DNA from: a virus
DNA: 64,000 bases
Strand: one strand, 5' to 3'
IMG/VR virus record: IMGVR_UViG_3300042868_007692
Span: 9,165 to 73,164 of that record
The first letter of the stretch is position 1; each line of letters begins with the position of its first letter. Shown in pieces: positions 11,610-46,000 of the stretch. The notes beneath the pieces are model-generated. The model was given only the letters and a program-made list of their open reading frames with translations. It had not been told where the DNA came from and searched no databases. Made by a program: the position numbers and the translations under genes.

Positions 11610-12638
11610 ATGAGCTTATTTCAATACAATTCAGATAAACTTGATAGAAGAGGATATATAAGTAAGGAAAGTATTTTGTCTTTAGTTACTCAAGAAGATG
11701 TATTTGAGTTAGTGTTCAAATTTAAACCTGAAGAATTTGAGTATGTAGTATCTCCTTTAAGAAATGATGATGTACCAGGATGTTGGTTTTCTTATCATGA
11801 TAATGGTACTCTCTATTTTGTAGACTTTGGTAATTCTAGGACTCATAGTGATTGTTTTAATATAGTCCAGGACTATTACAAATTTCCAAACTTCTATTTG
11901 ACTTTAGAATTTATTCATAACTCTTTAATTAGAGGTAAGACTGAATTAAAGGAAATAGAACCTAAAAAAATAATCCAAAAAGTATCCAAAGAAGGAGTCA
12001 AACTCTTAATAGAAGCAAGACCATTTAGTGAGCAAGATGGTTATTTCTGGTCTAAGTATGGTATTAGTAAAGCCAATCTAAAAGAAGACAGAGTTTTTCC
12101 TATTCATAGATTATATGCTTTGAATACTAAAACAGGAAGTCATGCTATTGAATGCAAAGATTTAGCATACAGTTACACTGATTTTCCTGAAGCTAGAAAG
12201 AAAATCTATTTTCCTTTAAGACAAGGAAAGAATAGGTTCATTACTAATTGTAATAAAGATGATGTAGGTGGCATCAACTCTCTGTCTCAATATAGTAAGC
12301 AACTTATTATTTCTAAAAGCTACAAGGATTATAGAGTACTTAAAAATAATGGAAAAAATGTAGTTTGGTTTCAAAATGAAGGTATGATACCCAATAATGA
12401 AATTATAAACAAATTGGTTAAACTTTATTCAGAAATTATTGTATGGTTTGACAATGATCAGCCTGGAATTATAGCTTCAGAAAAAGTCAAACAACATATA
12501 AATTCCATTATTCCAAGTAGAGCTAAAAATCTATGGCTACCTGAGAGAGGGTTAGAAATAGGGGTTAAAGACCCTTCAGATTGTATAGCTAAAGACCCTA
12601 TTTATTTTCAACAATTCTTAAAAGACTTTACAAAATGA
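11610..12638 (+). CDS. DnaG-type (TOPRIM) primase
   Basis: SPLRNDDVPGC..VDFG..SDCF N-terminal domain; ISKSYKD, WFDNDQPG, KDPSD. Confidence 0.85.
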   Translation: MSLFQYNSDKLDRRGYISKESILSLVTQEDVFELVFKFKPEEFEYVVSPLRNDDVPGCWFSYHDNGTLYFVDFGNSRTHSDCFNIVQDYYKFPNFYLTLEFIHNSLIRGKTELKEIEPKKIIQKVSKEGVKLLIEARPFSEQDGYFWSKYGISKANLKEDRVFPIHRLYALNTKTGSHAIECKDLAYSYTDFPEARKKIYFPLRQGKNRFITNCNKDDVGGINSLSQYSKQLIISKSYKDYRVLKNNGKNVVWFQNEGMIPNNEIINKLVKLYSEIIVWFDNDQPGIIASEKVKQHINSIIPSRAKNLWLPERGLEIGVKDPSDCIAKDPIYFQQFLKDFTK

Positions 12639-13174
12639 ATTTCAATCATATTCATTATTCTTGGAAACCCCTTCTAAGAGAATTTAATACAGATGCTTTT
12701 CTTTACTTTAAAAATGAAGTCCTTCCAAAAGAAAAATATTACCCTGAAGCTGATAAAGTTTTCAGGGTTTTTTCTATGCCTGTGTCAGCTATTAAAATAG
12801 TAGTTATTGGCTCATGGAAACACCCTAATATCAGAGAAATAGAAAAGCAAGGCTTATTCTGGCTACCTATTTCCTTAACACAAGGTGTAGATGTGGACCA
12901 CACAGAATATTGGGAGCCCTTCATTAAAAAGGTAGTGTATTTTATATCCAAGAGTAACCCTACTATTTGGATAATGCCTACAACAGAAGCACAAAGATTT
13001 ACAGCTAATCTACCTGTCAAATCTATATTTAATGTGCTAAGATATGATGATAGCCTTATTAATCAGATTCCCATCAATGTAGATTACAATTATGTGTTTA
13101 AAGGTATTTATGTAAATACTGAACACATAAACATCCTCCTAAAGAGATTAGGTAGGGAAACAATTAATTGGTAA
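12635..13174 (+). CDS. Degenerate family-1 uracil-DNA glycosylase homolog
   Basis: HYSWKPLL..YYPEADKVFRVFSMPVSAIKIVVIG matches the UNG N-terminus, but GQDPY is replaced by GSWKH. Confidence 0.65.
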   Translation: MNFNHIHYSWKPLLREFNTDAFLYFKNEVLPKEKYYPEADKVFRVFSMPVSAIKIVVIGSWKHPNIREIEKQGLFWLPISLTQGVDVDHTEYWEPFIKKVVYFISKSNPTIWIMPTTEAQRFTANLPVKSIFNVLRYDDSLINQIPINVDYNYVFKGIYVNTEHINILLKRLGRETINW

Positions 13175-13193: not shown

Positions 13194-13943
13194 ATGAGTG
13201 AAGTACAAGCTCCGGTTACTACTGAAAGAGAAGTAACAATTTATGCCACTAGAGGTGGTAACATGAAAAAAATCATGACATCTGTTAAAACTTGGGGAGA
13301 ATTACAACCCTTAGTTAGAGGAGAAGGTTTTGATTTAGGTTCATTATTAGCTGCTGAGAACATCAACAAGACAGACCTTGTTAATGATTTAGCAATATTA
13401 CCTGAAGGAAACTTCAGATTATTCTTAAGACCAAAACAAACTAAGTCTGGTGCAACTCCTGATAGAAAAGAATGTTTTGCTATTATCAAAGCTCATTTAG
13501 CTGTTTACCCTAATGATAAACAAAAGTTTATCATTGATGGTAAAAACATGACTCAGTTATCTACTCCTGTAGTACAGGATTTAGTGGCTAAGTATTGTAA
13601 AGGTACTGATATTGCATCTGCTGTTGCTGAAGCTCCAGTTAAAGAGAAAGCTCCAAAAGCTGAAGTTGTAAAAAAAGTAGAAGATGTTGTAGAGTCTGTA
13701 AAAGAATCTAAAACTGAAAATACTCCAGCTACACCTCTTACAGATGCTGTGAGAGTTGAAGAAGCTTTAAAACTTATTGCTCCTTTATCAGGTTATGACT
13801 CTTATGCTAAAGTAGAAAAGCATTTGAATAGACTTTCTGATGAAATAGCTATTGCAAATGCTCCTGCTCCAGAAATGAAAGAAGAAACTGAAGAAGAGGC
13901 TTTAGCTAGAGAAGCTAGAGAACTGTCTGCAGGTTACAGATAA
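13194..13943 (+). CDS. Putative ubiquitin-like (beta-grasp) domain protein; Ubl ends at KSG86, followed by a 163-aa extension
   Basis: Strand-strand-helix pattern EVTIYAT..KKIMTSVKTWGELQPLV, final strand FRLFLRPKQTKSG; adjacent to JAB and E1 genes. Confidence 0.65.
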   Translation: MSEVQAPVTTEREVTIYATRGGNMKKIMTSVKTWGELQPLVRGEGFDLGSLLAAENINKTDLVNDLAILPEGNFRLFLRPKQTKSGATPDRKECFAIIKAHLAVYPNDKQKFIIDGKNMTQLSTPVVQDLVAKYCKGTDIASAVAEAPVKEKAPKAEVVKKVEDVVESVKESKTENTPATPLTDAVRVEEALKLIAPLSGYDSYAKVEKHLNRLSDEIAIANAPAPEMKEETEEEALAREARELSAGYR

Positions 13944-13950
13944 TATTAAT

Positions 13951-13986
13951 AAAGGGCTTATGTAATGTAAGCCCTTTTAATTTTTT
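13951..13986 (+). terminator. Intrinsic terminator after the Ubl gene
   Basis: AAAGGGCTTAT..TGTAAGCCCTTT stem followed by TAATTTTTT. Confidence 0.75.
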
Positions 13987-13991
13987 ATATT

Positions 13992-15185
13992 ATGTATATA
14001 GATGATCATCAATTACCATTTTATGAAGAAGTAGGTCAAATACTTCATAATGCTTTATTAATGAATACTCATAAAAACAAAGAATTTTTACAGTTTTTGT
14101 TTGATAAAGGTAAACTACAATTACATGGCTACCCTAATCCTAATCAAAAAGCTATCAATGAATTTTTTAGACTTTTAGATTTATTTGAAGCTAAATACAA
14201 AAGTTTTTATGACCTAGGTTTTCATACTAAAGATGGATACTTACAACCTTACTTTAAAGTCTTATATCCCAAGTTTACTATTGAAAATAGTGCAGGAGAA
14301 AGCCATCAAATAAGAGATTTAATAGTAGTTCATAGAATAGCTTATAATACAAATGAAGAAGGTCATATCTATACTAGAAAACCTTTAGGAGGCAGACTAA
14401 GTAAATTTAAACTAGAAGTAGTAGGAGGTTATCAACAAAGTCATTTAGGTTCTCATTCAAATTGGAAAAATGACCCTTTTTATACTTCAGAATTTTGTGT
14501 AGGTGGAGATACTGATGTAAGTAGAATGATAGCTGAATTTAAAGTAGAGATGGATTGGGACAGATATGAATTATACTTATTTTGTGTTGATTCTATGGTT
14601 ACTTGGGAGTCTTTAGAAGGTGTTCCTTATACAAAAATAAGAAATATTAAGAATGCTCTTAATAACCAGGTTACTTCTGTAGATGCATCTTATGTAAGAA
14701 GAGTTGTTGATAAAATTACAAAAAATGAAATTGCTTTAGATTTAGACTTTTACATAGAGAATGGTTTATACAGAATTAGACCTAATGAAAAAGCTAATGA
14801 GTTTATTAAAAATATAGTTTTACAAACTCTTACTTTTGAGCAATACAAAGAAATCTTAGTTAGTAGAGTACCTAATACTTTCAATGAATTTCTTCAAATG
14901 AAAGCTGAGCAAGATGCTCAACAAAACTATAAAATAAGTTATCCTACTAGATACACTATTTTTAGAGGCAAAAAAGTCTTTGCCAAAATACTTAAAGAAG
15001 ACACAAGAAATGAACCTGTTGTCTCTTTAGAAAACCTTATTGTTTATCCTAATTTTTTAAAAGATGTCCTTAGTCAACTTGAGTCAAGAATCTATAGCAA
15101 AGCAGTTACCCAGAGTGGAATTAAAATCTACAATTCCCTTGGTAATGCCAATAGAAGTATTACATCAGATTCAGTATCTGTGTAA
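13992..15185 (+). CDS. Putative prokaryotic E2-like (Ubl-conjugating) protein
   Basis: QSHL..SEFCVGG resembles the E2 HPN..xCL active-site region, followed by helices; lies between Ubl and JAB genes. Confidence 0.5.
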   Translation: MYIDDHQLPFYEEVGQILHNALLMNTHKNKEFLQFLFDKGKLQLHGYPNPNQKAINEFFRLLDLFEAKYKSFYDLGFHTKDGYLQPYFKVLYPKFTIENSAGESHQIRDLIVVHRIAYNTNEEGHIYTRKPLGGRLSKFKLEVVGGYQQSHLGSHSNWKNDPFYTSEFCVGGDTDVSRMIAEFKVEMDWDRYELYLFCVDSMVTWESLEGVPYTKIRNIKNALNNQVTSVDASYVRRVVDKITKNEIALDLDFYIENGLYRIRPNEKANEFIKNIVLQTLTFEQYKEILVSRVPNTFNEFLQMKAEQDAQQNYKISYPTRYTIFRGKKVFAKILKEDTRNEPVVSLENLIVYPNFLKDVLSQLESRIYSKAVTQSGIKIYNSLGNANRSITSDSVSV

Positions 15186-16311
15186 AAATATACCAAAAGT
15201 AGAGTGGTCAGGTGCTCTATTTTATACTACAGAAGGTAGTATTGAAAAACCTGGAACATTCAAAATTACTTTAAAGACAATTCTTCCATTAGATATGGGT
15301 AGTTCAGCTTATACTGAATACAATCTTGATGAAAGATTTATGGATTTTATTGAAGAAGATTTTGAAGAAAGATGTACTTGGAAATTAGGTCATATTCATA
15401 GTCATAATGTAATGAGTGTTTTCTTCTCAGGTACAGATATGGCAGAGCTTAATGACAATGCTCCAGCACATAATTTTTATCTTTCTTTGATAGTAAATAA
15501 CTATATGGACTTTATTGCCAAAGTTGCTTTTATTGGAGAAGCTAAAAAAGATATTAAACAGGTTCCTTATACAGCTAAGAATGCTGAAGGCCATAATTAT
15601 ATCATTGAAAGACAAGACTTTGAAGTTAAGACTAAAAAGTTGTTTATTTATGATTGTGACATTGATACTCCTAAGAATACAATCTTAGTGACAGATCAAT
15701 TTTCTGCTCAAGTAGCTAAAATTATGGAGCCTAAACCTGTAAAAAAAGTAGAATCTAAATGGCCTGCTACTACTACTACTACTACTACAGGAAAGGGATG
15801 GCAAAGAAAGGATAATACCAGGCAATTCAAATCACAAGAAGACAGGGAAATGGAAAGTTGGAACAAAAGCTTTCAGAAAGAAACTAAAAAACCTTTCAAT
15901 AATTGGGAAGATTGGGAATTACCTATTTCTACTTTACTGGCTGAAGATTTAGAAGAAGAAGATTTAAAAGCAATGTATATTTATAATTTTGCTAAAGAAT
16001 TATTTGATTTTACAGGAGGTTCTACACAAGAAGAAACTTTAGAAGATGTTTTAGATATGTTAGTAGAGTTTAACTTAACTCCTTCTGAATTAGCTAAATC
16101 CGTAATTACAGAGTATGCTAAAGATTTTAATAAACATTTTCCTAAAGCTAATGCTACTGAATTTGTTCAGTATACCCATGAAACTTTAGATTTATTAGAA
16201 GATGTGAAACAACTTTATCCTGAAATTGGATTAACTATTAGAACTATTAGTTCTATGATTACTAAATTTATAGAAAATGAGACAGACAAGAGACACAACC
16301 CAGCAGTCTAG
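15064..16311 (+). CDS. JAB/MPN+ (JAMM) metalloprotease with long C-terminal extension
   Basis: EWSGALF (catalytic Glu) and GHIHSHNVMSVFFSGTD (HxH-x7-S-x2-D). Confidence 0.9.
   Translation: MSLVNLSQESIAKQLPRVELKSTIPLVMPIEVLHQIQYLCKNIPKVEWSGALFYTTEGSIEKPGTFKITLKTILPLDMGSSAYTEYNLDERFMDFIEEDFEERCTWKLGHIHSHNVMSVFFSGTDMAELNDNAPAHNFYLSLIVNNYMDFIAKVAFIGEAKKDIKQVPYTAKNAEGHNYIIERQDFEVKTKKLFIYDCDIDTPKNTILVTDQFSAQVAKIMEPKPVKKVESKWPATTTTTTTGKGWQRKDNTRQFKSQEDREMESWNKSFQKETKKPFNNWEDWELPISTLLAEDLEEEDLKAMYIYNFAKELFDFTGGSTQEETLEDVLDMLVEFNLTPSELAKSVITEYAKDFNKHFPKANATEFVQYTHETLDLLEDVKQLYPEIGLTIRTISSMITKFIENETDKRHNPAV
15769..15789 (+). repeat. (ACT)6ACA trinucleotide repeat encoding Thr7 in the JAB linker
   Basis: actactactactactactaca. 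Confidence 0.85.
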
Positions 16312-16978
16312 ATTTAAAGATGCTCCATGGTTTCCTAAAAACAATGAAGTGTGCATGGTAGGTGGAGCAGGTGGTATTGGTTCTTGGTTATGTTATTTCT
16401 TAACTAAGATTGGTTTTAGAGTTAACCTCTATGACTTTGATACTGTAGAAGACCATAATCTAGGTGGTCAATTATTTATGCAATCTGACTTAGGTCAACC
16501 TAAAGTAACAGCAGTAGCAAGAGTTGTAAACTCTTTTTGTAATACTCCTATAGCTACATTCAATGAAAGAATTGATATGAATACAATGACACATTACTTT
16601 ATGTTTTCTGCTTTTGATAATATGGAAGCAAGAAATGCATTGTTTCATGTCTGGAAAAAGTCCTGGGGCTCAGTTCCTTTAGCGGTGACTCCAATCTTCA
16701 TAGATGGTAGATTAGAGATAGAGCAATTACAGATATTTTGTGTTACTCCAGAGAATGCTGACAGGTATGAAAGAGACCATTTGTTTCATGATTCAGTAGT
16801 AGAAGAAGCACCTTGTACTATGAAACAAAGTTCTCATACAGCAGCTATGATAGGAACTCTTATGACTTCCTATTTTACTAATCATATTGCTAACATTTAT
16901 AGTGGAGAGACTATCAGAGAAGTCCCTTTCTACTATGAATTTGTAGTTCCTATGAACTACTCAGCTTCTGAACTATGA
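16277..16978 (+). CDS. E1-like ThiF/MoeB-family adenylyltransferase
   Basis: GGAGGIGS, DFDTVEDHNLGGQ, K, AFDN..AR, FIDGR; candidate catalytic Cys in EEAPCT. Confidence 0.93.
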   Translation: MRQTRDTTQQSRFKDAPWFPKNNEVCMVGGAGGIGSWLCYFLTKIGFRVNLYDFDTVEDHNLGGQLFMQSDLGQPKVTAVARVVNSFCNTPIATFNERIDMNTMTHYFMFSAFDNMEARNALFHVWKKSWGSVPLAVTPIFIDGRLEIEQLQIFCVTPENADRYERDHLFHDSVVEEAPCTMKQSSHTAAMIGTLMTSYFTNHIANIYSGETIREVPFYYEFVVPMNYSASEL

Positions 16979-17988
16979 GAGTAATATCCTCTACATTAGG
17001 AAGCTTAACCAATGATCCTTTTAAAATTACTGTATTAGCAGCTAATACCTACATTCCTATCTATGCTTTTCACACATATTATCAGGAAGAAGGTGTTAAA
17101 TTCTATAAAAGACCTTCTTTAGAGAAAGGTACTCTTAGAAAACCTAATACTTTAAAGCACATAAAGGATGCTCTAGAAATGGCTATTGCCCCAAGAAGAA
17201 TTCTTATAGGTAATAAAAATTATTACTTTATAAAAGGTGCAATGTACACTGAGGATGGGAATCCTCTTATGGTGTTAGGTATGTCTAAAGAAGCTTTTAA
17301 AAATCCTGATATTCCTAATTTCTCTGATAATTATGGAGAATCAGCTAGTCTTTTTGACTATAAAAATTTTGTTATGTTTTACTCCACATCTTTCTTTACT
17401 GAGCCTAGTCTTGCTCCTTTAAACAGAAGATTTCAAAAAGAAATATTAATGTCTTGCTATGAAAAAGGTATAGAGGTAAGAGTGATTACCTCATCAGAAA
17501 TTGAAAAGAATACCTTTGCAAACATTTTTGAAATCCCTAAAGCTAACTCTGTTAGTCAATTAGAGGAGTACATGAACAAAGTACTACCAACAATTTTATA
17601 CACAAAAGAAGAGGACACTTTTGTATTTGAAGAGTTGACAGTACCTGAAGTTGTTCAAAACCATGAATTATCTGTGGAAGAAGAAGCTCTACTATTTGAT
17701 TCTGAAACTAGTCAGGAGTTGCCTGGAGTTAATCCTACAACTTTTGATATTACTCTTAATACAGAAGAAGTAGTTGAATTACTTCCTATTTTTAGAGACC
17801 CTGAAATAGAAGAATTAGAAAGAGAAGCTGCAACTTGGGATTCTGCCCATACAGAACCTGCTTATGTAGCTCCTGAGTATCCTATAGTTCCAGAAGAAAG
17901 TATTATTCTAACACCTATAGGAGAAAGGGTAACTAATGTTTCTTTTAGAACCACTAGACCAATAGAGCTTATTGATGACACAGAATAA
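16975..17988 (+). CDS. Hypothetical protein with acidic C-terminus, translationally coupled to E1
   Basis: ATGA overlap with the E1 stop; last ~120 aa E/P/T-rich. Confidence 0.75.
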   Translation: MRVISSTLGSLTNDPFKITVLAANTYIPIYAFHTYYQEEGVKFYKRPSLEKGTLRKPNTLKHIKDALEMAIAPRRILIGNKNYYFIKGAMYTEDGNPLMVLGMSKEAFKNPDIPNFSDNYGESASLFDYKNFVMFYSTSFFTEPSLAPLNRRFQKEILMSCYEKGIEVRVITSSEIEKNTFANIFEIPKANSVSQLEEYMNKVLPTILYTKEEDTFVFEELTVPEVVQNHELSVEEEALLFDSETSQELPGVNPTTFDITLNTEEVVELLPIFRDPEIEELEREAATWDSAHTEPAYVAPEYPIVPEESIILTPIGERVTNVSFRTTRPIELIDDTE

Positions 17989-34065: not shown

Positions 34066-37000
34066 CTAATTACATTCTTTAATTTTTTGTTTTTCTTCAG
34101 ATGTCAAACTATTCCACTCTTCTTCTGAAATATTTAAACTAGCTATTTTAGCAGAATAAGGTAAAAGATTTACTTCAGGAGTTAACTCAGAATCTGTACT
34201 ATAATCCTGACTAGGAGCATTTTCAGTATCTTCTTGTTCTATTAAAGCTCTATCTGCTATCTCTTGCTCTAATGCAGATACATCTACATCTGTTGTAGCA
34301 AAGATATCATTTTGTTTTTTAATTTCAGTTTCACTTTCAATAAAATTCAGAACATTGTTTAAAGAAGTTTCAGCTAAAGTGCCAGCTTTAATCTCAATAC
34401 CTAATTGAGCTAAAGTATTCTTAATAGCTTCTACAAACTTATCTAATAAATTAACTCCAGAGTCTGTTTTAAGAGTACTCAAATATTTTTGAAAACTCTC
34501 TGATTCAAAAGCTACAGCTACAAACTCAAGAATATCTACAGCAGGGTATCCAATCTCTAATTCTTCTGAAGTCATTAAAGTAGGTATCTTAGCTCTTAAA
34601 TCTAAAGTTTTTTGTTTAGCTTTTTCTATTAAACTAGCATCTGTTTTTGAAATAAAATCTTGCCAAACTTCATGTAAAGCAACAACATGTCCAGGAGCTG
34701 AAGGAGAAAGAACAGAGTAAAATCCATCTTTATCTTTACTGTAGTACTTTAATAAATCTCTATGTGTTAAAGCATGCATTACTTCATGCATAAACACTCT
34801 TTCTCTTTTATCTAAAGGTGTGTTTTGATCAATATAAATAACTCCTTCCAGGTAAGCTCCAGAAGTAGTTACTCCAAAGATAGATTTAGTATCTACTATT
34901 TTTACTTGAGTATTACTGGCAAAAGGAATTAGAACTTCAGCTAAAACTTTATGTCTTTTAGAGCTTTCTTTTCCTGAGTTAGCTATCCTTTTCAAAGTAT
35001 CTGAAACACTAGAATCATTTTGGACTGTCCCTAATTTTGGATCAAAAACAGTATCAAACTCTGTTTTAACTCCTGTAACTGCAGGTTGATTTTCCACAGT
35101 TTTAGAAGGAGCATTTTCAATAATAGATTTTGCACTTTTGACTAGTGCTTGATATTCATTCATACCATGAACTCCTAAGACATTAATTCTTTGATAAGTA
35201 TTATTTCCTATATGTTCATAAAGTTGATATTTGTTTTGTTTTAATTTGCCTTGTTTACCTTTACTGGATTTTCTAATAGTAATAAATTTAGGAGATTCTG
35301 GCTCATTTAAAATGAAAGTATCTGCATTATTTTTATTTACATCATCAGGAAAAACTTTAGCTTCTTGAGGATTGTGTTGGAAATATTGTTTTATAAAAAT
35401 ACTTTTCTCAACACTGTTTTCTCCAGGAGCCCCTAGTAATTGTGTAAAAATAGCAGGATTTCTCTTTACATTTATTCTTTGCATAATAGTAGCTGCAGAT
35501 ACAAAACCATCTTTAGTTTTAACTCCTACTTGTGAAAGATATTCTACAGGAATGTATTTAATAAACTGAATAGCTTCTTGAACTCCTCCCTCTAAATAAG
35601 CATAAGTAATTAACTCTTGAGCCAATTGTTTTGTAGAAAAAGGTTGCCCATTCCAATTTGGAAGAGGTTTATCCTGAATAATCAATTCTGCTAAAGAATT
35701 GTAGAGATATTTTTCTTCTAAGTTATCACTAATAGTGTTATTGTATTTTACAAAAGAAGGACTTACTCCATCTACTTCTACTTCATAAGTAAACCTGTTT
35801 AAAAGTTTGTTGTTTACAATAGCTTCTTCATTAGTGTTTTTACTTAAATACTCTGCTAAAGAAGTATTAGATGCACTACTAATGAATAATCTCTTTCTTT
35901 CTACTGCAGTATCTTCTGTATATAGACCCAACCCTTTCCAAGAATAGATATACTTTTTAACTTCTTTAATAATACTTAAAGTTTTTTCTATGTTTTTAAA
36001 TTTGTTGGTAGCATCTACTTCAGAGATATTTAAAATTTCACTAATTACAGCTTGTAATCCTGGATCATTATAAGGAAAAAAGTCTGACCATAATGTTTGA
36101 GAAGTGTATACACCTTGCACTACAATTTGTCCTTGAGGTGTCTGAGGCTTTACATAATAGTCTCCTATTCTAACATAACCTGTTACATCTGATAAGGTAT
36201 TTATAGGTAAAAAATCTCCTATAAGACTAGACACATTAGCTACTTTACTATTTTCAGAAAATTGAGACAAAGAAGTGTGAACAATATTAGACTCTACTAT
36301 AGACTTTCCTAAATTACCTGTAAACAATACAGATTGTACTTTTGCTAAGTTTTTAGAGTAGTCATTTAATTCTAAGAATAATTTTAAAGAAGCTAACTGC
36401 ACAGCAGGAGAAGAACCATTAGTTGTTAAGCCTTCCATTAAAGCATCTCCTGTTAATATAGAGCTGTCTATTTTTAAATCTTCTTGAGTTGAGTCTGTCT
36501 TATATTTGTTTTCTAAAGCTTCAATTACTTCTTGTTCTAAGTTAGGGTTATATTTAGCAGTTAAACCTTTCCCTTTTTGCATCATTTCTACATAATCTTT
36601 AAGGATAGGTTGAGACAATAAAGCATAGGCTACAGATAAATTTTTAGTAGTTCCATTTTCTGTATAGGTAGTTTTATCAAAACCTAACAAAGTAAGTAAA
36701 GAATCTACTCCAATAGTTAATCCATTCACATTTACTCTACCTAAGATTTGTTCTTTTTCATTATCAGTAGCTGTATTTTGTCTTTCAGCAAAAACTTCAG
36801 CAATACTCCTAAAACCATCAAGAGTTCTTTCTTTTCCTAAAACTCCCTCAGAAGATAACTTTCCTATTGTTATAGAATAATTTTCTGGCCCTTCTTCAGT
36901 GCTTTTTAGTAGCCTTAAAGGAGCTGAAGTTTGTTGAGTTAAAGCATGAAATGTTACATAGTTAGAATAGATTCCAATAGCCATTTTACCTACAGAACCT

Positions 37001-40000
37001 AATCCCATTTTCTTTTTTTGATATTCATCAGATAAAATAGTGAAAGTAGGAACTATAGATTTTAAAGCTTTCTCAGTTTCTTTAATGCTTTCTCCTTCTT
37101 GAGCTAACATTTGAGTTTCTTTAAAAGTTTTACCTGTGCCTATAGATTCTTGAATTAAGTCAGCTTGTTGTCTAGCAAAATCCATAGAAAGAACTTTGTT
37201 AATTTTACCTTGAACTTTTTTAGAAGGGTTATTAAATACAGCAGTATGAATTTTTATAAACTCATTCTCTAAAAGTTTTTGATCTAATTTACTTGTTACA
37301 ATTTCTATTTGTTTTTCAATGTTACTTCCTTGGTCTTGTAACTCTTTAATTGTGTCTTCATCTAATTGAGAGCCTAATAAAGTAAAAAAGTCTTCCATAG
37401 AAGCTAAACCAAATTCAGACTTAAAAATATTATTCTCTTCTTCTAAGAGTTTTTTTAATCTAGCTAAAGCTTTTTGTTTATGTTTTTCATTCAATACCTC
37501 TATTTTACCAGTTTTGAAATCTACAATGTGATTTAATTGATAGACATTTTCTTTATCCACATCAAAGTCAAGACCTTTTTGTTTAGTAAAGTTTTTAGGC
37601 ACTATCATTAAATCTCCAACTTCAGGAGGTAAAATTCCAACTATCTCAATGCTAGAAGCAGATACATGAGAAGATGTAGGAGTTCTAAAACTAAATTGGT
37701 TTAACAACTCTGGAGAAATCATACCTTCTTTTAATTTCCAAGTTCCATTCTCTCTTTTTTCAATGTAAATAAAATCTCCTTCAGATTTAGCAAATAAATC
37801 TACTAATTTACCTTCTTTATTTTTAAATTTAGAAGGGGCTAAAACTTGAGCTTTTCTAAAACTTCCATCAGTATTTACTCCTGCTCCTTGAAGTTCTACT
37901 CCATTATAATTATCTAGATAAATAACTCTAGATTCTTGTACTCCAGATAAATTTTCTTGAAAACCAAAACCATTTTCAGAACCGGCTACAAAAGAGTTTC
38001 CAGGAATCTTATGATTCATTAATCTATTAGTTACAATAGCATTTAACAAAGACTCAAATCTATCACTGTTTGTAGTTAACCATAAAGGAATTTTAAAATC
38101 AAAATACTCATTTCCTTCTTTATCTACTTGAGTTTCTAGACCTAAGCTTTTAATGTCTTGGATTGGATAATTTCTATTTATAGCTTCTTTTTGTAAAAGA
38201 TTTTGTAACTTCTGCATAGTGACTTTTTCACTCACAGGAACTCCATTAGAGTTCAATCCTAGTTCTTTAAAAAGACTTTGTTTTTTATTTTCAACTAAGT
38301 TTGTAAAGACTTCATTGTATTTTTCATACAACTCTTTACCTGTCATAGATTTATCCTCATAATTAAATCCAGATAAATTTAACATACCGTCTCCAAATAA
38401 CAGTTTAAAAATTTGAGTTCCCATTGCAACTTTATCTTCTTTTTTTAAGTCAGATTTAAAAGGTACATCTTGTTGAATTCTAAAGTCTTTTCTATTAAGA
38501 GTTAACATAGCAGTCTCTATACCTTTTAGACTTTCTACATCTAAAGGATCTATTGTTTGACTGTCTATTTTAGCTCCCACTTTATTTGCAGTTTGATAAG
38601 AAGCTCTTACAGTTGTATCATATTTAGCCTCTAAAGCTTCTAAAGAAACTCTTAAGTTTTCTAATTTAGTTCCTGCAGTAAGTTCAGGAATTAAAGGAAA
38701 AGAAGAAGATTTAATATAAACTGTTCTAGCTACATCATTTTTAATATTTCCTTGCTCATCTTTATCAAATAATTGACCTGTGTATACAGGTTTAATAGGT
38801 TGTAAAACAATGCCTAACTCTTCTTTAGTTAAGGTAATACCTTTAATGGCTTTTTCTGTTAAGTCTTTATATTTACTTTCAGAAAGTTTACCATCATGAA
38901 ATAAAATATATAAATGCTCTTTTAAAGTAGTGTACTCTTGAGCATCAGTAGATTCAATATCAAAGTAATCACCTAACTTTTCAATGTCTTTAAATTTATC
39001 TTTTAAAGCTTTTCTAATAACAGTCTGTCTTGTTTTGTTAGCTGTTTTATACTCTGTCAAAGCTTCTTTTATTGTTTGAGAAGCATTTTCAAATAAAGTT
39101 CCATTTAAAGCTTCTTCTCCTTCAAATAAAGAAATAAGGTATTCTGCATTTTCTGTAATATCTACAGAATCTTTTAAAAAGATTTGTTTATAAGTTTTAT
39201 TTGCAGATTCAGCTAAAGTTCTACCTGGAGCAATTAATAAAGCTAATCTTTTTCCTATGTTAATACCTTGTTTTTCAGATAAGGTAGTATAGAAAGTATC
39301 ATTAGTAGCAAAATAAGGTTTGTCTACTTCTTTAAATAATTTATCTTGAGAGTATAAAGCTGGGTCCCCTGCAATTACAGTAAACATATCTGCATTGTTA
39401 AGAACAGAATTTAATACATAATCATAAACAGCTATCTCAAATTTTTCATCAAGATTACCTTTACCAGAGTTTAAATATTTACTATCAAAAACATTAATTT
39501 TTATAGTCTGTCCTGATTTATCTTTTTGTTTAAATTCTTCCCAAACTTCAGATTTTTCTGTTACTAAATTGTGCATAGTAGTTTCTACAGCATCTATTAA
39601 AGCCTCTTTAAAAAGAATTTCTGTAGCTTTAATATCTCCAGTAACTAAATGCTGTACAACTCTGTCTCCATTCTCATCTACTAAAGTATTTAAGACAGGA
39701 AAGAAATTAAATAGTTGAGCCGCATTATCATAGTCTTTAATATCAGTAGCTTTTACATTTTTATGAAAATTAGCTATTCTTTTCATTTCAGGAAGGATTA
39801 ACTTTTGATATAAAAGCTCTCTTAAATCTTCAGTAAAAGTTACTCCATCTTCTTGTCTGTTAAAAGCTATAGCACTTTCTGCCATAAAATTAAAAGCTCC
39901 TGTTGCTACAGTAAGCATTTGAGATTTATCTGACATAGTAGGTAAAAACATTCTTGCTACTCTCATAGTAAAATCTCCTACTTTATGAGCAATTGTACCT

Positions 40001-43000
40001 TGTTGGGTATCTTGAAACATACCTAATTTAGTGATATCATGATCTAAATTATTCAAGTCTGTGATACCAGCAAAGTTACTTGAAGCTTTTCCAAATTCTT
40101 TTAAAGCCTCTAAGCTTAAATAATTAGCCTCTAATTTTTTATAAAAGTTAGGGTCATTTTCTAGTAATTCTAGCAAAGTAGAATTAGAACTTATAGAAAT
40201 AGACTTTAAGTTTTTTATAAGTTCTCTATCTCCTGAAGAAATACTTTTAATTAAGTCATCAACTCTATCTGTAACAAAAGTAGGATTAGTGATACCTGAA
40301 ATATTTTTTCCAGCTACTCTAAAATTTTTAGATAGGATTTTACCTGAATATTTACTATCAGCTTTAGCTAAAGTTTTTATAACAGTCTGCATATCATTAA
40401 AAGGATGGGCTTTACTGTTCTCTTCAAAATTTAAGTTTTTTTGATTTTGAACTTTTCTTAAGTACTCTGCAAGTAATCCTATAGGAGTATTATTACCTTC
40501 AAAGCTTAATGCATAAGGTATAAATGTATTTTGATAACTAAATCCTATAGATTTTAATTCATTCCAATATCCTTTAGATAAGGTAATCCCAAAATTTTCT
40601 AACCAAGCCTGAACAGCTTCATCTGTTACATCAAAGTTTTTATCTTTCCAAGAAGAATATTCTCTAAGTAATTCCTCTGCTTTTTCTTTATTAATTAAGT
40701 ATTCTCCAGCTTCTACATTTACTAAAGGAGATGCTTTAAAATTATTTTTCCAAGAGTTCATAATTACTCTAGAAACTTCATTAGCATTAGTATCATAAAC
40801 TTGAAGTTTACTACCTTCAGGAGTAGAAATATACATTGTAAACTTCATATTCACAGCATGTTTTCTGTAGTTTACAACTAACTCATTTCTTAATTGAGCA
40901 TCAGCTTTATCAAATCTTTCCATTAACTCTACAACCCAAGGTTGAGCTTGTTTCATTTCAAGAATTTTAGCTTTCATCATTTCATAGTTAGAGTCTATAT
41001 AAACTCCAGAACCTAATAATTGATATAAAGTATCATAAACTTCATTGTAGTTAACATAAGTAGGAAGACCTAAGAATCCTTTAATTACATTTCCTTCTAA
41101 GTCTAATTTTTTAACACCTGACATAAATCTTCTTAATCTATAAGAAGTTTTATTTTTTCCACTTTCAGTTAAAGAAGCATTATCTTCAAAAGATTTGACT
41201 TTCATAGTCACATCTTCCTCTTCCTCTTCTTCTTCAAGATTATCTTTCTTTTCTTTGATATCTGAAGTTTGAGTAACTTCTTGCATAGCTTTTTCAATAA
41301 TCCCTGCTTGACCAGTATAAGCTTCTCCAGAAGCTTCTAGTACAGTTTTTATACTATCTGCATTCCAATGATTTTCAATATTAGTTAATACTCTTAGAAT
41401 ATTAATAAGATTCTCTTTTTGTGCAGTCACCTCTTCTGAGGCTTCTTGTATTTCAGCAAACTTTTCTAAAATAGCCTGTACTTTTTGTTTTGAAGGCTCT
41501 ACAATATCTTTATAAGAGTTGCTAATACTAGTTAAAAGCTGCTCTTTATTAATTTTAGTTTCTGGATTTAGATCAATAGCTGTATTGATGTAATTATAAA
41601 TGAAATCAATTAAATGAGCTTCTTGAGAAATGTCTAATCCTGGTACTAAGTTAAACAAATCTTTTAGAGCTTCAACATCTTCTAAAGTAGCAGGTAAAGC
41701 AGAAAAAGATACTCCAGGTTTAAAGCCTAACTCTTGTTGAATTTTTAAAGCTTCTTGTAAAAGTTGTTCTACATTAAAATTCTTATTTTTAATTTCTTCT
41801 GTTTCTGCTTTAACTACATCATTAATTTCAGCTATGGCAGTAATAGGAGTAACAACTTCTACTTCAGAAGTGTACTCAAAAACAATAGTAGGCTGTATAG
41901 AAGTTACAAATTTTGGATTATTTTCTGTTCCAATATTAAAAGACCTCACACCTGTAGTAAGCTTTTCTTTTAAAAAGTCTTGATAAGTTTTATTTGTATT
42001 TACTACTGTACCATTCTCAATAAGAGGTACTTGCATATTCTTATCTAAACCATCTCTTGAAACATTTAGATAAAAATCTTTTTCAGAAGCAATATACAAT
42101 TGTCTACCAAACTCAGCTCTAGAGTTTCCTGTTTTAGGATGAAAGAAAAGACTAAAGAAAGCATCTGCATCTTGATATCTCATAAGGTTATACCCTGTAA
42201 TATCTTTAATGTCTTTAATAATTTTTTTAGCTTGAGCTTCTGTCACATCATAATCTCCTCCTACTACAAACTTATTTCTAATTTCTTGGATAACCTGTTT
42301 ATTTTCTTTATCAACTTGAGTATCAAACATAGAATAAGCTGCCCAGGCCCACTTAACTGTTTCCAATTCTTGAGCTGGAGTTTTACCTATTTCTTTTATG
42401 TTTTTATAATTTGAAGTAAGAAAAGCTTGCCAAGTTTGTCTACCTTCAGAGTCAGTACCTATTCTTCTTAAATGCCATACTTTTCCTCTAGCTCCTTTTG
42501 CATTAATCATTTCTTTATTAATGACAACTCTTGTACTATCTTCAAAGTACTTATTCATACCTACTTCTAACATATTCTGGTTACCTTGAACCACTATGAC
42601 AGATTGAGGATTTGCTTCTTTAATAGATAACAATTCTATAAAATTACCCTCTGCATCTTTTATTTTTTCAATTGTATAAAAAGCACCATTATTTTTTTCT
42701 TTAATAGTAACCTTATTTACTCCTTGATTAATAACAGCTTTTCTAAAACTAGAAATAGTATTTTGAGATTCCTCAATAGCTTGTCTGTGACTAGAACTAA
42801 TACTACTAGGGTTCACACTATTATCTTTTCTATTAGGGTCAGCTACATTCCAAGGATTGTACCAAGAAGTTTCATGAATATAAGCTACAGGTTGCCCCTC
42901 ATTATTATAAGCAACTACAGGCACTGAATTAATAAAATCTTCTGAGTTTCTGTAATCAGGATTTGCATTTAACTTCTCTTGAAAAATTTCAGAATAGGGT

Positions 43001-46000
43001 TTAGTAATAGGTTTATTTTCAGAATCTCTTCCTACATAAACTCTAATATTACTCCACTCAGCTTCTGGAACCATACCTACATTAACTTTAGAGCCAGGTA
43101 AATACTTGTCCCAATCTAATAATTCTCTATAATCTATAGCCCCTTCTTCATAATTTAAGGTGTCTGTTAAAACAGGTTGTCTAACAAAAGTACCTGTCTT
43201 TTTACCTTGAGCATCTAATATTTCTATTTCTTCATATTTAATTGCATTAAAGCCAAACCTTAAAGCTAGACTAGTAATTCTTCTATCATTTAAAGATTTA
43301 ACAGGAACATTTTCATCATTAAAAGTCACAGTTTTAACTTGAGCTTTTTCAGTAATTTTTAATTGTTCATTACCATCTGCAACAACTTCTTCTGCAGTAC
43401 TTACTTTAGTAGCTACATTTTTAAAAATGGCATCAATATGAGCTTGAGCTTCTTGAACTGTATTTTTTAAAGGTTCAAAAACCTCATCATAAATCTCTTC
43501 AAAATTAGTTTCTGCTAATCCAGCTACTTTCCAGCCTAATACATAAGCATCAAAAGACTCTTCTGCTTTTTCTTTAGTAGTAAACCTAATAAAATAATTA
43601 AGAAGATCTTTAAAAGTAGGTTCTTGCCCTGAAACTTTTTTCATATCTCCATAAACTTTTTTAACTACTGCTCCTACAATTTTAACTTGCTCTTCATTAA
43701 AAGCTCCAGTATCTGCAGGCATTAAAGATAGTGGATCTAAAAAATCATCTTGAGAAACTACAACAGCTTCTGCACTAATTTTAGTTACTTCAGGGGTTCC
43801 TTCTTTTTTAACTTCATTAGGTTTAGTAACAGCTTCAATTTGTTGTTGAGCTTCATTGATAGATTGAGAAATAGCTCCCATAGTCACTGGCAACTCTTCT
43901 TCAACAGCATCTTCTCTTAAAGAATTTTCTATAAACTTGCTTAGAGTTTCTGCAGTAATATCTGACTCAATATTAAATAATTCTTTAATAGTCTCAGGAT
44001 TAACTTTTTGATTAGCATTAAACTCTTCTAATAAAACAGGAGCTGCAATTTCTAAGGTATCAAAATACTCATCCTGAATCTCTTCATTATCCAAAATAAT
44101 AGGATGTAATAAGCTTTGTTTAACAGTCTCTAATTGAGTTTGATGTTTTGTAATATCTTCTGCTGTAGCTTCTTGTACATTTTCATTTTCTATTGCATTT
44201 TCAGTGGCATTAATAAGTTTTACTTTTTCTTCTGACACTTTTTTAGCAGTCTCTTGAAGCAAAGCAATTCTATCAAAAGAACCAGTTTGTTTTTGTTTAG
44301 CTTGTAGTTTTGCTATTTTTTTATACTTCTGTTTGATTTCTTCAACTTTTTGAGCTGATAAACCTAGAGTATCTAATCTTACAAAAGCTTGGTCTATAAA
44401 TTTATCATTTAAAATAACTTCCCCTGTAGAATCAAATTCTAATCCGGCATCTGTTAAATTATTTTCTTGAATGTATCTGACAGAGTCAGAAAATTGAATC
44501 TGAACATTTTTAATTTTTTGTAAGGTTTCCTCATACTTAGGACTGACTTGCTCATTAAAAGCTTTAACAGTCATTTTTCTAGCTGAGTCTATATTATTTC
44601 TTGCAGCTTTTAAGCTTACATAAGTCTGTACAGCAGGTAATTCAGCTTTATCTAAAGCTTGTTTAAACTTTTCTAACTTTTCTGCTTCTTCTGCATCTAC
44701 AGGTTCTATTTCTAATAAAGTATCTGGGTTACTTACTACAGGCATTAAAGAGGCCTCTACATTAATTGTAGATAAGTAATCTTGGTATTCTTGATTTGCA
44801 AGTTCTCTTTGAGTCAAAATCTCTTTATCTAATTGCTCTAAAGATTGTCCAAGGTTAAGTTTAGAAGCTGCTAAATCTACAATTTTATCTATGTTACTTC
44901 TAGTCCCATATTTTTTATAAGTTTTATTTAAATCTGAAATCTTACCTTTAGCTAAAAGAATATTCAATGCAGTTTCTTCACTAAACTTAGTGTTTTTATT
45001 TTCAATAACTTTATCTAAAGTTTTTTCAAATTCATCTAAAGTATTAGTTTTAATTGCTTTTATGGCTAAATTAAAAAACTTCTTTTGTTCAATAGTATCT
45101 GCAGCCTCAAGAGATTCTGGAGTACCCTCTTCTCTTAAAGCTTGAATTTTATGATCATAGTCTACTTGACTAAAAATAGTTCCTCCTGAAGCCATTAAAA
45201 CAGTTTCAGCTAAGTCTTCATCAGTCATAGAATTATCAATAGCTTTATACATATCTCTAATAGCAGCTCTCTCTTCATAAAACTCTTGTCTTTTTTTATA
45301 ATTAGCTACATTTCCAACAGCCCCTAAAGCTGTAGTGTGACCACTCATTAATAAAGTTTGTCCAGCTACATCTGCATAAAAATCAGGATTAGCTAATTCT
45401 TCAAGTTGAGTTAAGTACTGAGAAGTAAAGTTTTCAAATCTAAGAGTTGGAGTAGCTTGTACTACAAGCTCTTCAATAAATTCTCCAGGTAAACCATCAT
45501 AAATTTTATTAGCTCCTGTGTGGTATAAAGCTTTACTACTAAGTTTACCTATTCCTAAGTTGTTTACATAGTTCTGGCCTTGTTTAGGTATCTCAGAAAG
45601 AAATTTTCTAGTCTTTTGAAAAGGTAATTTAGATATCCAACCTTTTGTAGTTTTATTATTTAATAATCTATTACCTAATTTTCCTACATACATTTCAGAA
45701 CCAAACTCTTTTACAGTCTCTGTATAACCATACAAATAAGATTCTTCCCAAGACTTAGGTCTTAACATTTCTTTTTCTCCTTCTAAAGAAGATAGGTAAT
45801 TGTTTAATTCTTCTAATTGAGTCTTATCTTGATTTGATAAGTTAGTCTTATTTTCTAGTTTAGAAATTGCATATTCTAGATTACTTTTTTTAAGGTCATA
45901 CTCTTTCATAAATTGAGTATAAGCTGCATCATTAGTTACAACTTTTTTAGACCCATCTTTATCTACAACTAATCTCACATCTCCTACTTGCTGTCTTAAC

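Follow-up and report, generated by a model that had tools for sequence, protein, structure and literature searches.

Tagging of proteins with ubiquitin-like (Ubl) modifiers in bacteria has so far been found as host defence against phages, in the Bil and type II CBASS systems, or in operons of unassigned role, i.e., Bub and PRTRC. In the operon bilA-B-C-D the peptidase BilC exposes a glycine of the tag BilA (PMC10557695), and in the Bub system BubAB is a pre-protein that is cleaved behind a conserved Gly by the JAB domain of BubCD (PMC11601596). Among phages, TAPI combines a Ubl with a C-terminal domain and TAPK combines a JAB with an NlpC/P60 domain (Iyer et al., 2006; PMC1779556). The DNA considered in the following is the 64,000 nucleotides from position 9,165 to 73,164 of the IMG/VR virus record IMGVR_UViG_3300042868_007692, referred to as the window. 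It contains four consecutive genes, A, B, C and D, that probably make up a phage-encoded Ubl conjugation module in which a tag, a protein resembling conjugating enzymes (E2), a JAB peptidase and an activating enzyme (E1) follow each other in this order.

The four genes and a fifth, E, were proposed as a conjugation cassette in a sequence-only reading of the window. The list of open reading frames (ORFs) agrees exactly with the five co-oriented genes of that proposal, and translation confirmed every motif it named in A-D. The cassette sits within the replication module of a crAss-like phage; the coordinates of all features are collected in Table 1.

Predicted folds and motifs in the four proteins

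The predicted structure of the protein from gene A is that of a ubiquitin-like domain followed by an extension. An AlphaFold model built on an alignment of 18 homologues from IMG/VR contigs has strands at residues 12-18, 24-29, 51-55 and 74-80 and a helix at 34-43, and this strand-strand-helix-strand-strand unit (residues 12-80) has a predicted local distance difference test (pLDDT) of 81-94; the value falls to 63 in the tail (81-90), after which helical domains follow. When 48,161 PDB representatives were searched with VIA-align the best match was FAT10 (Z 9.2, root-mean-square deviation (rmsd) 2.6, 78 residues aligned) and 33 chains reached Z>=8. The best 50 matches all cover the range 7-84 and are ubiquitin-like domains. 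Foldseek returned UBX, SUMO1, ISG15 and ubiquitin at probability 1.00 and TMt 0.6-0.69, with E-values all above 1e-3. Residues 12-80 are thus predicted to fold as a ubiquitin-like beta-grasp, which is what had been suggested for the first 86 residues from their sequence. The window protein matched no Pfam, NCBIfam or PADLOC model, none of the 18 relatives matched ubiquitin, ThiS, MoaD or other Ubl families of Pfam at E<=1, and nothing relevant was returned by a PDB profile search. Beyond the last strand the domain has a tail of six residues ending in K84-S85-G86. These three residues are invariant in 18/18 aligned relatives, are also kept in FpV4 and in crAss001 gp79, and close a well-conserved N-terminal block; immediately past Gly86 the similarity collapses. 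G86 is internal in A, within the tail of low pLDDT, and not at a free C-terminus. As a six-residue tail with an invariant terminal Gly precedes an extension of 163 residues, the pattern fits a precursor that is cleaved after Gly86.

The model of the protein from gene B (pLDDT 80.9, predicted template modelling score 0.70) consists of a long helix (52-72), a four-strand meander (73-139), a long loop that carries the residues SHL and FC, and helices at 175-185 and 189-204. When Foldseek's top 1000 PDB matches were re-aligned with VIA-align, 46 of the 50 listed were titled UEV, E2, RWD, UFC1 or Atg10, and two further kinetochore chains are presumably RWD proteins; the best match was the UEV domain of Tsg101 (Z 6.6, rmsd 3.7, 135 of 144 residues aligned). 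In the wide VIA-align search about 31 of 50 matches were of UBC type by title, with the Tsg101 UEV first (Z 6.0) followed by the RWD domain of GCN2 and many E2s, and with the bacterial BubB at Z 4.6. Values of Z<8 may, according to a warning of the tool, reflect a common arrangement. Foldseek found nothing in the PDB at E<=1e-3, and in BFVD only six matches at this threshold, all of them uncharacterised proteins of crAss-like phages or podoviruses. The evidence for a UBC/UEV-type fold in the model of B is therefore good but not certain; such a fold had been anticipated for this gene and was found at middling Z.

In an alignment of 41 diverse relatives, whose identity to the window protein is 19-31%, only eight residues of B (S150, H151, C169, G171, E206, S207, G210 and P212) do not vary. 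E2 enzymes carry a His-Pro-Asn motif and a Cys in the loop after the fourth strand. In the model H151 and C169 are part of the loop 146-174, which leads from the fourth strand to the helix 175-185, and C169 may thus correspond to the E2 Cys. The placement of these E2 residues after the fourth strand is described in section 14 of Iyer et al. (2006; PMC1779556). The motif that had been read as E2-like, SHL..FCVG, is present as S150-H151-L152 and F168-C169-x-G171, and its His and Cys are invariant in 41/41 relatives. The proposed assignment of B as an E2 is made from the predicted fold and these invariant residues and not from a sequence family. The family to which B belongs is apparently large and viral: it has 3036 representatives at E<=0.001 in a library clustered at 50% identity, and the 90% collection contains 130 clusters of it, none with a name and none on a contig longer than 117 kb. 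A caspase-like reading of the pattern 'SH ... C-x-G' was considered and dropped, as the model is a UBC-type meander and not a caspase sheet.

In the protein from gene C the residues E47, H112, S113, H114, S122 and D125 are invariant in 22/22 relatives, very distant ones included, and the JAMM motif noticed earlier is thereby present as the full pattern E..HxH-x7-S-x2-D. The window protein scores 13.2 bits (E 0.087) against Pfam Prok-JAB (PF14464), for which the cut-off is 25, and 21 of the 22 relatives match this family at E<=1, the best at 4.9e-6. The PADLOC JAB model is matched at E 0.013 over residues 24-136, a PDB profile match to an Rpn11-like protein is weak (E 0.12), and gp77, the counterpart in crAss001, is annotated as a metalloprotease. 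Gene C starts within gene B, in another frame, and the overlap (15064-15185) is 122 nt long, as it is in 12 of 14 loci, the other two having 134 nt. Variability within the overlap is highest at the third positions of the C frame (0.198 as against 0.105 and 0.099), which shows the upstream start of C to be real and the disordered tail of B to be the less constrained frame. Seven consecutive threonines and a linker of low complexity (15730-15800) lie between the JAMM domain and the helical C-terminal half of C, and the bases 15759-15798 were skipped as a repeat in read mapping.

The protein from gene D matches Pfam ThiF (PF00899) over residues 26-128 at E 8.8e-16 (58.2 bits, cut-off 28.1), the PDB entries of the NEDD8 E1 UBA3 (5.7e-6) and MoeB (2.2e-4), and PADLOC E1-E2 models at up to 8.6e-8; all 22 relatives match NCBIfam ThiF models. 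Ten residues are invariant in 22/22 (G30, G32, G35, S36, D53, D55, N61, K76, D114 and R145), and these presumably have the roles of the Gly-rich loop and of the Asp, Lys and Arg residues of an adenylation site. Cys180 is found in 20 of the 22 relatives, the other two having a Cys three residues later, and its position in the sequence would place it on the crossover loop. The E1 motifs first noted in D (G30/G32/G35, D53-x-D55, N61-L and Cys180 in EEAPCT) are thus found in a protein that passes the Pfam ThiF cut-off. D has a single adenylation domain, lacks a rhodanese domain, a zinc motif and any further domain, and is predicted to be a minimal ThiF/MoeB-type E1-like adenylyltransferase. The E1 of crAss001, gp76 (L001:5545-6696), is larger (383 aa): its C-terminal 230 residues match D and are preceded by an extra N-terminal region of about 150 residues.

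Conservation of the cassette among phages

Homologues of D were found in 79 of 50,697 phage records (29 Flavobacterium phages, 29 Bacteroides phages, 12 uncultured, 4 Xanthomonas phages, and others), among them crAss001, the PhiCrAssBcn isolates and the FpV4 group. The cultured relatives FpV4 and crAss001 (gp79-gp76), and also cr111_1, have these four genes behind the primase gene in unchanged order, and gp78 of crAss001, at the position of B, keeps S-H, C-x-G and E-S-x-x-G-x-P. With the genes recognised by BLAST or by profiles built here, all four were found in the order A-B-C-D in 25 of 38 related loci, those of crAss001 and cr111_1 among them. The co-conservation on which the original proposal depended therefore extends from the window to FpV4, crAss001 and cr111_1. 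A megablast search of phage records with the cassette gave no match.

The 13 loci outside the 25 keep parts of the arrangement to different degrees. Two of them (L024 and L025) have no upstream sequence in the contig. In six loci (L027-L032) JAB and E1 are kept by profile, although L028 ends just upstream of its JAB; at the equivalent positions, L027, L029, L030 and L031 encode a 79-aa protein with ...E-S-G followed by 9 residues and a protein of about 700 aa with HPH...C-x-G. Four loci (L033-L036) were matched by the E1 profile, in the case of L034 near the start of a contig of 4.8 kb. In L033, L035 and L036 a Ubl-like N-terminus, a protein of 410-455 aa and a protein with a JAMM-like motif come before the E1; two of these loci, L035 and L036, show the pattern PNPHL...C-x-G, and motifs were scanned for on L035 alone. 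In the Xanthomonas jumbo phage PhiXhv-12 (L038) the E1 is accompanied by a protein of 140 aa with S-G-G at its end and by one of 892 aa that carries HPH...C-L-G; no JAMM protein was identified in the cassette of this phage. The look that B and the large proteins of the distant loci share, '[S/P]-H-x ... C-x-G', was recognised by eye only.

In the annotations of four public records the E1 is called 'thiamine biosynthesis protein', and 'metalloprotease' appears in crAss001 only; the positions of the tag and the E2-like protein are 'hypothetical' in the three crAss-type records checked. No description of the cassette was found in searchable papers, a search outside which lay subscription papers and supplements such as the gene tables of crAss-like phage surveys. 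Judged from gene order and profile matches the cassette is not unique to the window and belongs to a large family of crAss-like phages that has so far gone without annotation.

The 48-nt spacer between A and B carries a hairpin of 12 pairs followed by a T-rich tract, with only about a dozen bases between the T tract and the start of B. The scanned region has 8 terminator-like sites as compared to 2.8 +/- 2.1 in shuffled sequences. Of 20 loci whose spacer was folded, 19 have a strong hairpin with a T tract at this place, that of crAss001 at -28.4 kcal/mol, and the stem sequences are unrelated in FpV4, L015, L018, L019, L026 and crAss001. That the position is kept while the stems are unrelated points to selection on the structure of the hairpin, which is probably a partial terminator. 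Partial termination after A would provide the tag in excess over the enzymes.

Proposed pathway and alternative explanations

We infer the conjugation pathway from the parts, their motifs and their order, and its chemical steps, cut site, targets and timing are proposed on the same ground. Gene A would be translated as a 249-aa precursor, and the JAMM peptidase C would cut it after Gly86 to give a beta-grasp tag of 86 residues whose carboxyl end, K-S-G, is free. D, which is probably a homodimer like MoeB/ThiF and the Bub E1, would then adenylate Gly86 and take the tag onto Cys180, from where it would move to Cys169 of B. Alternatively the acceptor might be Ser150, beside His151, by analogy with the Bub systems that form oxyesters. 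Lysines of proteins of the phage or the host would receive the tag from B at an early stage of infection, the time at which the replication genes are expressed. It is conceivable that the C-terminal domain of B chooses the target and that C also removes the tag. The claim that the phage carries its own conjugation pathway inside the replication module is in this way borne out for the folds of A and B, the motifs and their invariance, the gene order and the location, while the activity itself is deduced from these.

Several observations weigh against such a pathway. A is conserved beyond Gly86 as well (G116, N118, T120 and L130 in the 18-sequence alignment), so that it could act uncut. The structural Z of B is at most 6.6, within the range that may reflect a common arrangement, and the best matches are UEV domains, which are catalytically dead. 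The window protein B matched no Pfam, NCBIfam or PADLOC model, its relatives matched the UQ_con or Prok-E2 families of Pfam in 0/18 and 0/36 cases, and a PDB profile search with B was empty at E<=10. In the HMMER alignment N-L-G-G-Q of D stands opposite N-L-N-R-Q of UBA3, and the Arg is found in none of the 22 relatives. Finally, the hairpin cuts A off from B-C-D, and the four genes may therefore not share one transcription unit. Co-folding of D with A(1-86) and B(1-377), with B as partner, gave a score of 0.00 and no verdict, and this run, made without controls, counts neither for nor against binding.

If B is not an E2, tagging might be E2-independent. E1 alone suffices in the archaeal SAMP/UbaA systems, and B would then be a UEV-like adaptor that binds the tag, or an unrelated Cys/His or Ser/His enzyme on a UBC-like scaffold. 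The matches to non-catalytic UEV domains are in keeping with this, as is the lack of a sequence link between B and any E2 family, and hhalign linked B to no protein of the same position in the distant cassettes (probability 0.2% for L027-L030 and 0.15% for L035/L036). UEV and RWD domains, however, are without a conserved Cys (Iyer et al., 2006, section 14; PMC1779556), whereas His151 and Cys169 are kept in 41/41 relatives of B. B is, moreover, always located between the tag and JAB genes, and we consider E2-independent tagging rather unlikely.

Still somewhat less probable is a sulfur-carrier pathway in which A(1-86) would be ThiS/MoaD-like, D would form a thiocarboxylate on the Gly exposed by the JAB protein, and the sulfur would be used to modify a nucleotide, a cofactor or DNA during replication. 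Exposure of the glycine of a sulfur carrier by a JAB protein is known from CysO/Mec+ and QbsE/QbsD. The best NCBIfam matches of D are ThiS adenylyltransferase models (2.5e-14, far under the cut-offs), two MoaD chains are among the structural matches of A in VIA-align (Z 8.3 and 7.9), and the cassette lies among genes of nucleotide metabolism and replication. On the other hand ThiG, ThiS, MoaE, rhodanese and PP-loop ATP_bind_3 each gave 0 matches in the record (73 kb, 77% complete), and the lack of such partners weakens the sulfur-carrier explanation; the absence of ThiS, ThiG and molybdenum cofactor genes had been noted before and holds for ThiG, ThiS and MoaE across the whole record. D also has no rhodanese domain, and the tail of A ends in Ser-Gly and not in the Gly-Gly that is typical of sulfur carriers. 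Sulfur transfer would in addition leave the invariant UBC-like protein unexplained.

It is very unlikely that the cassette is a processing or chaperone module without conjugation, where the beta-grasp would be, as has been proposed for lambda TAPI/TAPK, a folding or targeting domain, here of A 87-249, that is detached by the JAB protein, and the E1-like protein would adenylate something else. The conservation of A past Gly86 (G116, N118, T120 and L130) and the phage Ubl-JAB pairs described without E1 or E2 (Iyer et al., 2006; PMC1779556) speak for it. Throughout, however, the pair is accompanied by an E1 that keeps its Cys and by a UBC-like protein that keeps both His and Cys, and the distant tags, a stand-alone 79-aa protein with 9 residues after the Gly or a 140-aa protein with an S-G-G end, show that the C-terminal domain of A is dispensable.

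Should A-D be a conjugation module as proposed, the tagging logic of the bacterial systems would here be a core, conserved part of the replication module in a large group of phages, with regulation of replication, attack on host proteins and interference with host Ubl-based immunity as possible roles. A wider proposal is put forward only tentatively: that Steigviridae-type crAss-like phages, including the gut phage crAss001, might run a complete Ubl conjugation of their own as a weapon or regulator in early infection, tagging host defence or replication factors or their own replisome by means of an E2 family that has diverged past recognition by sequence. In that case it would be, within the papers that could be searched, the first phage-encoded set of E1, E2, peptidase and tag to be described as working for the virus and not against it. 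As crAss001 and its Bacteroides host can be cultured, the use of a viral Ubl system is directly testable. The cassette also supplies a very divergent E2-like family and a minimal E1 for the study of enzyme evolution.

Genomic setting and comparison with known systems

The source record comprises 73,164 bases and is rated 77% complete. The + strand encodes DNA polymerase, helicase, primase, a protein like uracil-DNA glycosylase (UDG), a RusA-like resolvase, an exonuclease VIII-type nuclease, thymidylate synthase and ligase, and the structural genes are on the - strand together with a giant ORF of 13.3 kb; by this layout the window belongs to a crAss-like phage. The giant ORF (34066-47358, - strand) is a single reading frame of about 4430 codons, as is typical for the giant proteins of crAss-like phages. 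A-E all start with ATG and lie between the UDG-like gene and the resolvase gene. The UDG-like gene (12635-13174) encodes a 179-aa protein that matches uracil-DNA glycosylase models over its first ~60 residues only (26.8 bits, cut-off 162); its counterpart in FpV4 is 249 aa long and annotated as UDG, and the window possibly encodes a UDG that has become shorter or has diverged. In four freshwater metatranscriptome runs, contigs that are 90-95% alike, i.e., from relatives, cover parts of A, C, D and E, which is no proof of transcription.

Table 1. Positions of the cassette features in the window, and of position-equivalent cassettes in distant loci (given as locus:positions)
Feature	Position	Strand	Description
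Gene A	13194-13943	+	249 aa; putative ubiquitin-like tag precursor
Gene A, residues 1-86	13194-13451	+	predicted beta-grasp and flexible tail ending in K84-S85-G86; Gly codon 13449-13451
Gene A, residues 87-249		+	helical C-terminal extension, 163 aa
Terminator-like hairpin	13951-13987	+	12 pairs, loop of 3, T-rich tail
Gene B	13992-15185	+	397 aa; E2-like
Gene B, UBC/UEV-like core	14064-14642	+	about residues 25-217; predicted structure
Gene B, candidate active-site residues	14439-14444; 14496-14498	+	S150-H151; C169
Gene B, C-terminal domain		+	residues 230-377; role not assigned
Gene C	15064-16311	+	415 aa; predicted JAB/JAMM (MPN+) metallopeptidase
Gene C, catalytic domain	15127-15558	+	about residues 22-165; then Thr-rich linker and helical C-terminal half
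Gene D	16277-16978	+	233 aa; predicted minimal ThiF/MoeB-type E1, one adenylation domain
Gene D, candidate catalytic Cys180	16814-16816	+	
Gene E	16975-17988	+	337 aa; no assigned function
Distant position-equivalent cassette	L027:1604-5480		
Distant position-equivalent cassette	L029:3724-7759		
Distant position-equivalent cassette	L030:890-4938		
Distant position-equivalent cassette	L035:4041-7603		
Distant position-equivalent cassette	L036:4636-7606		
Distant position-equivalent cassette	L038:1739-5615		

Gene E, included as an unknown fifth member when the cassette was first proposed, is indeed co-oriented with D and adjacent to it, its start overlapping the stop of D by 4 nt, and the two are translationally coupled. 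It has no link to A-D beyond this adjacency and is not counted as part of the system. In an alignment of 13 sequences the N-terminal domain (1-215) and the acidic C-terminal tail (…IELIDDTE) are conserved, and the acidic linker between them varies; the tail resembles the C-terminal tails of phage single-strand-binding proteins. Homologues were found by profile in the clade of the window and in FpV4 only (7.6e-15), a restriction that none of the other four genes has, and none in L001 or L018-L026; hhalign with the genes at position 5 in other clades gave a probability of 2.6%. E matched no Pfam, NCBIfam or PADLOC model, and gave no usable match in the protein atlas.

Among the systems to which A-D can be compared, PRTRC (TIGR03734-03742) is likewise a set borne on mobile elements in which a ThiF-type E1 is found with small partner proteins. 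D matches PRTRC_ThiF (TIGR03736) at 1.6e-11, with 44 bits and a cut-off of 144.75, and 19 of its 22 relatives do so at E<=0.001, with 3.4e-13 as the lowest value. None of the proteins A, B, C and E matched an NCBIfam model, of PRTRC or other, at E<=0.1, and no ParB-like gene was found in the flanks of the cassette. With type II CBASS the cassette shares the logic of E1, E2 and JAB, there in the form of an E2-E1 fusion (Cap2) and a JAB protein (Cap3), and the PADLOC matches of D to the E1-E2 models and of C to the JAB model agree with this. A-D, however, is without a CD-NTase or an effector, and its E1 and E2-like proteins are separate. Cap2 conjugates the cyclase, whereas A-D has a dedicated putative beta-grasp tag instead.

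The tail assembly proteins TAPI and TAPK of lambda/T1 are a likeness on a phage: in TAPI a beta-grasp domain that ends in a conserved Gly is joined to a C-terminal domain, and beside it stands a JAB protein predicted to release it (Iyer et al., 2006; PMC1779556). This pair belongs to a tail module and has no E1 or E2, while A-D is in a replication module and has candidates for both enzymes. In the type I Bub system (BubAB, BubCD and BubE) the tag is, as proposed for A, the front of a larger pre-protein that is cut by JAB after a conserved Gly, the E1 is a homodimer with a single adenylation domain and its acceptor residue on the crossover loop, and the E2 has an invariant Ser beside the His, comparable to the invariant S150-H151 of B (PMC11601596). 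The tag and E2 and the JAB and E1 are, however, fused in Bub and encoded by four separate genes in A-D, and Bub works through Tyr/Ser oxyesters and has no catalytic cysteines (PMC11601596), whereas a Cys is conserved in D and in B. A DUF6527 protein was not among the 11 window proteins that were scanned with Pfam.

The bacterial anti-phage system Bil (BilABCD, types I and II) has the same four parts in the same order, Ubl-E2-JAB-E1, and in Bil, as proposed for A-D, the JAB protein pre-processes the Ubl so that a conserved non-terminal Gly is exposed, in a pathway without an E3 (PMC10557695). It differs in being located in a bacterial defence locus with CapH/CapP, where A-D is borne by a phage within its replication module, in having up to 9 residues after the Gly in type II BilA as compared to 163 aa in A (PMC10557695), and in the E1, as BilD has tandem adenylation domains and a mobile CYS domain, whereas D is a single domain of 233 aa (PMC11601596). 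When the PADLOC models of Bil were applied, A, B and C matched none at E<=0.1, and D alone matched BilD (E 0.0014, 15.4 bits). As the PADLOC models fail and the architecture of the E1 differs, A-D is not counted as a Bil system, and it falls outside PRTRC by the tests made here as well. What can be read from the proteins and their order suggests instead that A-D works like a pathway of the Bil/Bub type and forms a separate, phage-specific variant of it.

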